A DNA stretch of 64,000 nucleotides, taken from assembly GCF_000026545.1 (NCBI RefSeq), contig NC_011601.1. The stretch is one strand, 5' to 3'. The position numbers are program-made. The DNA is from Escherichia coli O127:H6 str. E2348/69. Lineage in GTDB: Bacteria > Pseudomonadota > Gammaproteobacteria > Enterobacterales > Enterobacteriaceae. The stretch's first letter is position 1. Every line of letters begins with the position of its first letter. Below, piece by piece: positions 23,501-26,500 of this stretch.

Positions 23501-26500
23501 TTCGCCTGTAAAACCGCCAATGGTACCGCAATCCCTATTGGCGGTGGCAGCGCCAATGTTTATGTAAACCTTGCGCCTGCCGTGAATGTGGGGCAAAACC
23601 TGGTCGTGGATCTTTCGACGCAAATCTTTTGCCATAACGATTACCCGGAAACCATTACAGATTATGTCACACTGCAACGAGGCTCGGCTTATGGCGGCGT
23701 GTTATCTAATTTTTCCGGGACCGTAAAATATAGTGGCAGTAGCTATCCATTTCCTACCACCAGTGAAACGCCGCGGGTTGTTTATAATTCGAGAACGGAT
23801 AAGCCGTGGCCGGTGGCGCTTTATTTGACGCCTGTGAGCAGTGCGGGCGGGGTGGCGATTAAAGCTGGCTCATTAATTGCCATGCTTATTTTGCGACAGA
23901 CCAACAACTATAACAGCGATGATTTCCAGTTTGTGTGGAATATTTACGCCAATAATGATGTGGTGGTGCCTACTGGCGGCTGCGATGTTTCTGCTCGTGA
24001 TGTCACCGTTACTCTGCCGGACTACCCTGGTTCAGTGCCGATTCCTCTTACCGTTTATTGTGCGAAAAGCCAAAACCTGGGGTATTACCTCTCCGGCACA
24101 ACCGCAGATGCGGGCAACTCGATTTTCACCAATACCGCGTCGTTTTCACCCGCGCAGGGCGTCGGCGTACAGTTGACGCGCAACGGTACGATTATTCCAG
24201 CGAATAACACGGTATCGTTAGGAGCAGTAGAGACTTCGGCGGTAAGTCTGGGATTAACGGCAAATTACGCACGTACCGGAGGGCAGGTGACTGCAGGGAA
24301 TGTGCAATCGATTATTGGCGTGACATTTGTTTATCAATAAAGAAATCACAGGACATTGCTAATGCTGGTACCTGAGGCGCTACGCTATCAGACCTACAAA
24401 ACCTGCACGTTAGCCCTTTGTAGGCCAGATGCGCCAGCGTCGCATCTGGCATAAACAAAGCGCACTTTGCCGACAATCCGAACAGAGCCTGCCATTGGCA
24501 GGCTCCGGTGTTCTTTTACGCTACCATGCTAATAATCAACACCATAATCAGCCCAACCACGGAGTTGACCAGCTCCAGCAGACCCCAGGTTTTCAACGTG
24601 TCTTTTACTGACAGGTCAAAGTAATCTAAGAGGCATTGCTAATGTAGGGAATGTGTCTGAACCTGCGGTCATTGTCAGTACCAGCATCAGACCAATGCCG
24701 AATACCACTCAGAGAATGTTAAGCACATGCATAGCGTTTTACCTTACCTGGTTGAACCGTTGTTATTTTGGGCGACATGTTATGTAAATTGGTCAACCAT
24801 TGTTGCGATGAATGTCACATCCTCTGATCAATAACCATCGATTACCCTTTGCTGCAATTTGCAGCAACAACCAGGAGAGTGAAATTCTTGTGATGTGGTT
24901 AACCAATTTTAGAATTCGGGTTGACATGTCTTACCAAAAGGTAGAACTTATACGCCATCTCATCCGATGCGACGCTACGGCTGTGGCCGGGTTGTTCATC
25001 CGGATACCTAAACAACTCCGGGGTTCCGCGTCTCTTCGCTGTTGAACCCACTATGTGAAAGAGGAAAAATCATGGAACAGACCTGGCGCTGGTACGGCCC
25101 AAACGATCCGGTTTCTTTAGCTGATGTCCGTCAGGCGGGCGCAACTGGCGTGGTTACCGCGCTGCACCATATCCCGAATGGCGAAGTATGGTCCGTTGAA
25201 GAGATCCTCAAACGCAAGGCGATCGTTGAAGACGCAGGCCTGGTATGGTCTGTCGTAGAAAGCGTGCCAATTCACGAAGATATCAAAACCCACACCGGCA
25301 ACTATGAGCAGTGGATCGCTAACTATCAGCAGACTCTGCGCAACCTGGCGCAGTGCGGCATTCGCACCGTGTGCTACAACTTCATGCCGGTGCTCGACTG
25401 GACCCGTACTGACCTCGAATACGTGCTGCCAGACGGCTCCAAAGCTCTGCGCTTCGACCAGATCGAATTCGCTGCATTCGAAATGCATATCCTGAAGCGT
25501 CCAGGCGCGGAAGCGGATTACACCGAAGAAGAAATTGCTCAGGCCGCAGTTCGCTTCGCTACCATGAGCGACGAAGACAAAGCGCGTCTGACCCGTAACA
25601 TCATTGCCGGTCTGCCAGGTGCGGAAGAAGGGTATACCCTCGACCAGTTCCGTAAGCACCTGGAGCTATACAAAGATATCGACAAAGCCAAACTGCGCGA
25701 AAACTTTGCCGTCTTCCTGAAAGCGATTATTCCGGTTGCCGAAGAAGTTGGCGTGCGTATGGCGGTTCACCCGGACGATCCGCCGCGCCCGATCCTCGGC
25801 CTGCCGCGCATTGTTTCCACCATTGAAGATATGCAGTGGATGGTTGATACCGTAAACAGCATGGCGAACGGTTTCACCATGTGCACCGGTTCCTACGGCG
25901 TGCGTGCTGACAACGATCTGGTTGATATGATCAAGCAGTTCGGTCCGCGTATTTACTTCACCCATCTGCGCTCCACCATGCGTGAAGATAACCCGAAAAC
26001 CTTCCACGAAGCGGCGCACCTGAACGGTGACGTTGATATGTACGAAGTGGTGAAAGCGATTGTTGAAGAAGAACACCGTCGTAAAGCGGAAGGCAAAGAA
26101 GACCTGATCCCGATGCGTCCGGACCACGGTCATCAGATGCTGGACGACCTGAAGAAGAAAACCAATCCTGGTTACTCCGCAATTGGTCGTCTGAAAGGCC
26201 TGGCCGAAGTTCGCGGTGTCGAACTGGCGATCCAGCGCGCTTTCTTTAGCCGTTAATACCCACCGGCATGGCTGCGCGCCGTGCCGGTTCCTTCTTCCTT
26301 GCCGTCACTCTCTGAAGACGGATTCTGGAGTTTACGATGACTACTATTGTTGACAGCAATCTGCCGGTTGCCCGCCCGTCATGGGATCATTCTCGTCTGG
26401 AATCACGCATTGTGCATCTCGGTTGCGGGGCGTTTCACCGCGCGCACCAGGCGCTGTATACCCATCATCTGCTGGAAAGTACCGACAGCGACTGGGGTAT

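Follow-up and report, generated by a model that had tools for sequence, protein, structure and literature searches.

The interval between fimH and uxuA in Escherichia coli O127:H6 str. E2348/69 raises the question of what has become of gntP there, and by what route. We analysed a stretch of 64,000 nucleotides of the chromosome of this strain (NC_011601.1, assembly GCF_000026545.1; hereafter the window, to which all unqualified coordinates refer), in which the RefSeq gene order is fimD, fimF, fimG, fimH, a permease pseudogene, uxuA, uxuB and uxuR. Positions 24300-25100 match three E2348/69 assemblies with 100% identity. In K-12 the same interval is occupied by a complete 1,344-bp gntP (b4321). 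The RefSeq annotation of E2348/69, generated by the Prokaryotic Genome Annotation Pipeline (PGAP), places a pseudogene flag at 24516-24623 on the minus strand ('GntT/GntP/DsdX family permease, incomplete, missing N-terminus'), and an earlier note, made from the sequence alone, described about 200 bp of frameshifted C-terminal coding sequence in two frames at 24485-24725. We conclude with high confidence that gntP is a decaying pseudogene made by a deletion between two 10-bp repeats and then damaged by further lesions, that the fructuronate uptake route would have been lost with it and that the allele is a common polymorphism.

The remnant of gntP measures 217 nt (24516-24732, minus strand). 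Flanked by fimH and uxuA, both of which are on the opposite strand, it consists of the two extremities of the gene, namely the first 57 nt, ATG included, and 160 nt from the 3' end. In blastn comparisons with K-12, positions 24485-24624 matched the terminator and the last 109 nt of gntP (97.1% identity, E = 7e-66), while the match of 24675-25200 (97.3%) ran from the beginning of uxuA through the gntP-uxuA spacer into the first 58 nt of gntP. A tblastn search with K-12 GntP recovered residues 413-447 at 24623-24519 (97%, E = 1.5e-14) and residues 1-21 at 24732-24670 (86%, E = 6e-4), with no further GntP-like sequence within the 64-kb window. Homology at both ends thus identifies the remnant as the orthologue of gntP. 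The C-terminal peptide matched Pfam PF02447 over its curated cut-off, at positions 406-440 of 440 only; a functional permease would match this family over nearly its full length, and 371 codons have been deleted here.

Resolved along the minus strand, the remnant begins with a 5' portion at 24676-24732 (sense nt 1-57), in which the ATG occupies 24730-24732 and TGA replaces Trp8 at 24709-24711. This is followed by a mutated patch of 48 nt at 24628-24675 (K-12 sense nt 1171-1219; 14 substitutions and a 1-bp deletion), by the site of a 13-bp deletion between 24627 and 24628 (sense nt 1220-1232), which takes out most of the FWLFK codons, and by a well-preserved distal portion at 24516-24627 (sense nt 1233-1344; 97% identity, with three differences in 112 nt) ending in the stop codon, whose complement TTA is at 24516-24518. 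Compared with K-12 gntP, the locus, its orientation (convergent with fimH, divergent from uxuA), the spacer and the operator boxes are the same and the surviving ends are 97% identical, whereas the remnant lacks 1,127 of the 1,344 nt (1,113 + 13 + 1), its ends are out of frame with each other and codon 8 is a stop. With only 19 N-terminal and about 36 C-terminal codons recognisable, three deletions, a premature TGA and an intact gntP in relatives, the gene is a pseudogene, and the proposal that it had been destroyed is borne out.

The anatomy proposed for it is not. The earlier note, in reporting a frameshifted 3' fragment and nothing else of gntP, implies a 5' truncation with loss of the promoter-proximal part, a view that would fit the PGAP annotation of just the 3' 108 nt as 'missing N-terminus' and the fact that the strongest protein match is C-terminal. 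The ATG and the rest of the first 58 nt of gntP are nevertheless present at 24675-24732 and run directly into an unchanged 339-bp spacer, which refutes a 5' truncation, an anatomy to which we assign practically no probability; the damage is instead internal, with the start codon and the entire upstream spacer kept. The size, the gntP origin and the two frames suggested earlier were correct, but the coding sequence is not exclusively C-terminal, 57 nt of it being the 5' end with the start codon. Its limits also need adjustment: 24485 is the edge of a terminator hairpin, coding sequence starting only at 24516, and 24725 stops 7 nt short of the ATG.

Alignment to intact gntP, recommended earlier as a means of finding the deletion endpoints, confirmed that the fragment is gntP-derived and placed the endpoints at short repeats. 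Intact gntP from K-12 and from the B2 strain ATCC 25922 contains exactly two copies of the 10-bp sequence CAGTACCAGC (GCTGGTACTG in the sense orientation), at sense nt 48-57 and 1161-1170. The spacing of the two copies is 1,113 bp, or 371 codons (K-12 locus positions 2128 and 3241, with equivalent positions in ATCC 25922). The window holds a single copy of CAGTACCAGC, at 24676-24685 on the minus strand, precisely where homology switches between the 3' and 5' parts of the gene. The intact allele has the repeat at each breakpoint, the junction retains it once, and exactly one repeat spacing has been deleted; the main lesion is accordingly a deletion of 1,113 bp mediated by the repeat, which alone would preserve the reading frame. 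Such a deletion would arise by slipped-strand mispairing or by short-homology recombination between the two 10-bp repeats. The 13-bp deletion, the 1-bp deletion and the 14 substitutions beside the junction, all common to every copy of the allele examined, are further lesions added to it, and the change of Trp8 to TGA is another, seen only in sequences identical to E2348/69.

Slipped-strand deletions between short direct repeats are well known from the classic deletion hotspots of lacI. The gntP junction resembles them in having a 10-bp repeat at both breakpoints, in keeping one copy and in a deleted length equal to the spacing; a second event at the same locus, described below, uses an 11-nt repeat. 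It differs in lying beside a strongly mutated 48-nt patch and two small deletions, which are not products of a single slip. This difference counts against the slip as a full account of the allele, since a simple slip leaves unexplained why the 48 nt on the junction side diverge from K-12 by 29% when the adjacent 112 nt diverge by 2.7% (Fisher p = 3e-6). Also on the debit side, no intermediate with a clean junction was found among 5,426 complete E. coli genomes, where the lone full-length match, in strain HH45, proved to be a different allele, or among metagenome contigs, 22 of which were matched by a control pattern taken from the patch.

Other origins for the patch were weighed. Foreign filler of 48-50 nt was considered and ruled out: the patch aligns best, locally, with the part of gntP that lies immediately inward of the left breakpoint (score 19, against a maximum of 14-16 for shuffled sequences), and of the 25 top-scoring orthologues compared from other genera, most had their best match to it at the homologous position. 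A more specific proposal makes the patch an import, brought in through recombination or gene conversion with a donor that was either a diverged orthologue of gntP or a paralogue of the GntP family. In its favour, the divergent intact allele of strain NCTC9022 has one of the same 14 changes. Against this, a 20-mer from the patch was not found in representatives of 100,044 species, of 80 orthologous or paralogous loci none is closer to the patch than E. coli gntP itself, and among complete E. coli genomes the patch occurs at the gntP locus alone, once per genome. Furthermore, the conserved C-terminal motif G-S-x(4-5)-H-x-N-D-x-x-F-W, which is retained in 77 of 80 homologous loci, is broken in the remnant: it reads AGSDTF-YISNAS, the patch replacing H by Y, N by S and D by N, and most of the FWLFK codons have been lost to the 13-bp deletion. 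Because the patch breaks a motif so widely kept, a working gene could not have been the donor, and we regard import as very improbable.

A more serious contender holds that the deletion and the patch were born together in one error-prone template-switching event, by serial copying from nearby quasi-repeats, and not by a slip followed by slow decay. Three exact 10-11-mers, overlapping by 5 and 4 nt, tile 22 of the 48 patch nucleotides (24634-24655): CATTGCTAATG, an 11-nt direct repeat found at 24354-24364 just past the fimH stop and again at 24634-24644 in the patch; TAATGTAGGG, present also within gntP of ATCC 25922; and AGGGAATGTG, present also in the 3' end of fimH at 24295-24304. Under simulated random substitution such tile coverage had P = 0.002-0.005, and an 11-mer within 300-600 bp had P of about 0.01. 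All 14 substitutions occur together in every copy seen, without intermediates, and a second haplotype of the allele shares a 16-nt repeat with the copy downstream of fimH. These tests were, however, post hoc and their P values moderate; the patch is still collinear with gntP; and its substitutions, 11 of 14 being transitions and 10 of 14 GC-to-AT, have the bias usual for spontaneous mutation. Later stepwise change is also evident, in the form of a 12-bp deletion, three haplotype-specific substitutions and an intermediate metagenome haplotype, and the metagenome search pattern needed the patch core and was hence blind to less-mutated forms. Template-switch mutagenesis of the class represented by microhomology-mediated break-induced replication and fork stalling and template switching (MMBIR/FoSTeS-like events) likewise yields changes clustered at a junction and short exact matches chained by overlaps of 4-5 nt; unlike such events, the present case has support that is statistical and post hoc, a patch collinear with gntP and half of its changes without a nearby template. 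We consider a joint birth of deletion and patch possible but on balance doubtful. Partial templating of the patch, by template switching or short-patch conversion, is put forward with similar reserve, as a tentative refinement and not as a finding. Deletion between the 10-bp repeats followed by further lesions remains the account that we prefer.

The allele extends well beyond E2348/69. The same gntP junction is present in 850 of the 5,426 complete E. coli genomes (about 16%, or one in six); gntP is at least 80% covered in 4,532, and about 44 genomes are in other states. Carriers of the patch number 853, roughly 182 having at least 95% identity to the window (a group that includes 536, UM146 and a sequence type 80 strain) and 671 having 90-95%. 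Two carriers of the second haplotype, CP131_Sichuan and STEC 2013C-4538, possess every junction feature, including the 13-bp deletion; in addition, their 3' remnant has a 12-bp deletion and their patch three more substitutions, codon 8 reads TGG and the spacer is K-12-like. Metagenomes contain the allele too: 22 contigs carry it, several of them bearing a human gut label, and over a 230-nt region they fall into 12 haplotypes. One of these haplotypes (L109) is intermediate between the two main forms, and only one contig is identical to E2348/69 with the TGA; the other 21 metagenome copies have TGG at codon 8, as do both sequenced carriers of the second haplotype.

Since both haplotypes carry all the junction features, the allele, as judged from sequence comparison, is of single origin and old enough to have diverged into two haplotypes, and it is not special to E2348/69. 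Its flanks resemble the intact alleles of their respective backgrounds, a pattern that points to recombination around a small linked core. Additionally, strains whose fimA region (17400-18600) is 99.8% identical to that of E2348/69 mostly carry an intact gntP; the fimA and gntP alleles have therefore been uncoupled by recombination over about 6 kb. The phylogroups of second-haplotype carriers were approached with a chimeric query joining the spacer to arpA, which was confounded by repetitive extragenic palindromic (REP) and BoxC repeats in the spacer, so that its outcome is suggestive only. As a separate observation, the second haplotype carries about 70 extra nucleotides, the BoxC-like CCCTCACCC...GGGGCGAGGG with flanks, between a REP element and the terminator hairpin (loci L003 and L004, about 2790-2870); E2348/69 is without them (window about 24470-24472).

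Erosion has continued at the deleted locus. One metagenome contig (OIEU01002450.1, designated L107) lacks exactly 24365-24644, a stretch of 280 bp between the two copies of CATTGCTAATG, and the 11-nt repeat within the patch exists only through two of the patch substitutions. Two partial matches suspected of being secondary deletions of the same type turned out to be insertion sequence (IS) insertions. ISKpn26 adjoins the patch of the deletion allele and IS1X2 adjoins the 5' remnant, in two genomes (23AR1101, L111, and GZ2408P, L112). The gene has been hit independently as well. In EECO1006 (H91), IS1 splits an otherwise intact gntP. Strain HH45 (L088, NZ_CP116411.1, locus about 780-810) carries a separate gntP deletion with near-identical endpoints and an unmutated, K-12-like 3' part, its junction bearing an insert of 24 nt, GCCCCCCCCCCCCCCGGACTCATT, that includes 14 C's; the repeat may have given rise to a deletion once more here, or the allele may be an artefact of assembly. 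The gntP locus is thus a tidy natural case of stepwise pseudogene erosion by short direct repeats, of 10 bp and then of 11-16 bp, and possibly also a case of clustered mutation copied from a template at the site of a deletion.

Might the remnant instead be retained as a new small gene or RNA under the control of UxuR? The upstream spacer, the start codon and the terminator are all kept, the allele is frequent, and the common second haplotype has an open reading frame of 36 codons, MHVLNILWVVFGIGLMLVLTKTAGSDTFAALAMPLR. Yet E2348/69 has the stop at codon 8, the haplotypes differ by indels (the 12-bp deletion and the 280-bp loss in L107), IS elements lie in or beside the remnant in two genomes, a scan of 24200-25200 gave no Rfam match at E <= 1, and no minus-strand promoter-like site was found at the scan threshold. 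There is little chance, in our view, that the remnant serves in this capacity.

We are somewhat less dismissive of a role for selection in the spread of the allele, though we still hold it to be improbable. Under this proposal, an old gntP-null polymorphism of one origin, possibly one template-switching event, would have persisted or spread by recombination across distant lineages, its loss being perhaps favoured or balanced. If so, there could be niches in which being without the fructuronate carrier is favoured or balanced, and this could underlie the frequency of about 16%; the lineages concerned would be B2 strains (E2348/69, 536 and UM146) and, with the diverged second haplotype, strains with K-12-like flanks. 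The repeated independent hits to gntP, namely the HH45 deletion and the IS1 insertion, would fit selection for loss.

What the deletion means for the cell depends on whether gntP survives elsewhere in the genome, the possibility by which a loss of uptake could be refuted. A chimeric query was built from the fimA region of E2348/69 and the deleted interior of gntP. Three E2348/69 chromosome assemblies ranked at the top with one place each, and similar strains gave two places. Thus, no megablast-level second copy of the gntP interior is present on any of the three E2348/69 chromosome assemblies (chromosomes only; plasmids were not individually inspected). As a positive control, the same query design with exuT gave two places in E2348/69, and exuT DNA is present.

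From this state of the locus, no GntP protein would be made and uptake of external fructuronate by the GntP route would be lost; GntP is reportedly, from the work of Bates Utz et al. in 2004 (as cited in PMC5934670), mainly a fructuronate carrier. E. coli has other gluconate permeases, and overall gluconate uptake is therefore not expected to be lost, so that the earlier suggestion of a loss of gluconate uptake was overstated. UxuA and UxuB would, from the known pathway, still serve glucuronate entering via ExuT and isomerised by UxaC, as well as glucuronides. A continuing need for uxuAB in the use of glucuronate by ExuT and UxaC would explain why uxuA, uxuB, uxuR and their operators are intact.

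In Shigella and enteroinvasive E. coli, large deletions or IS events remove gntP along with uxuABR or fim genes (PMC4374849). E2348/69 shares with these organisms a lineage-specific inactivation or loss in the same chromosomal neighbourhood; it differs in that gntP alone is affected, fim and uxu being intact. The GntP fructuronate carrier should be scored as absent, and the rest of the glucuronate/fructuronate pathway as kept, in E2348/69 and in about 16% of complete E. coli genomes. This bears on metabolic models and on work on the use of sugar acids in gut colonisation, with little weight beyond correct annotation. The loss of gntP is an ordinary, common pseudogenisation by a textbook mechanism, already known through the RefSeq annotation. 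Our literature searches found no paper describing the deletion allele; the detail added to the annotation is incremental and consists of the exact junction, the descent of both haplotypes from a single origin, the erosion in steps and the possible templating of the patch.

The neighbouring genes are undamaged. fimH (23438-24340, plus strand, by RefSeq annotation) is an intact open reading frame of 300 aa with no internal stop, convergent with the gntP remnant. Between the two lies a terminator-like hairpin (24485-24505) with a T run (the whole at 24485-24515), collinear with K-12 and shared by fimH and gntP. On the other side, uxuA (25072-26256, 394 aa), uxuB (26337-27797, 486 aa) and uxuR (28012-28785, 257 aa, with GntR helix-turn-helix and FCD domains), all on the plus strand, are intact, as had been stated. 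Their products differ from those of K-12 by 2, 1 and 3 amino acids, respectively, and give full-length Pfam matches.

The divergent spacer of 339 bp between gntP and uxuA (24733-25071) is collinear with K-12, with no indels. Two UxuR/ExuR-like palindromes had been noted upstream of uxuA, and both were found, unchanged from K-12: a gntP-proximal box, AAATTGGTCAACCATTGT, at 24786-24803 (TGGT-CA-ACCA), and a uxuA-proximal box, GATGTGGTTAACCAATTT, at 24892-24909 (TGGT-TA-ACCA). Their centres are 106 bp apart, and neither box varies among the five sequences compared, which include K-12, ATCC 25922 and both haplotypes. The uxuA-proximal box overlaps the sole promoter-like site found by the promoter scan (24888-24915). 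The boxes were located with an 18-mer search pattern, and they fit the published definition of the motif, an A/T-rich palindrome TKGT-N2-ACMA for UxuR of the FadR subfamily of the GntR family (PMC4494728). About 0.7 matches to the pattern are expected by chance per 64 kb, and two fall within the 339-bp spacer. Genomic SELEX (systematic evolution of ligands by exponential enrichment) in K-12 found UxuR bound only at the gntP/uxuA spacer (PMC5934670).

A third UxuR-type box, TATTTGGTTGACCAGTTT, lies at 27839-27856, between uxuB and uxuR (TGGT-TG-ACCA). All three boxes have TKGT and ACMA half-sites with a 2-nt spacing and are predicted operators for UxuR/ExuR. The position of the third would be consistent with autoregulation of uxuR.

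One further intact allele is of note for its divergence. The gntP of NCTC9022 (L006, 1501-2844) differs from that of K-12 by 5%, with the differences concentrated towards the middle of the gene (up to 16 per 100 nt), and on its sequence looks to be mosaic or recombinant.

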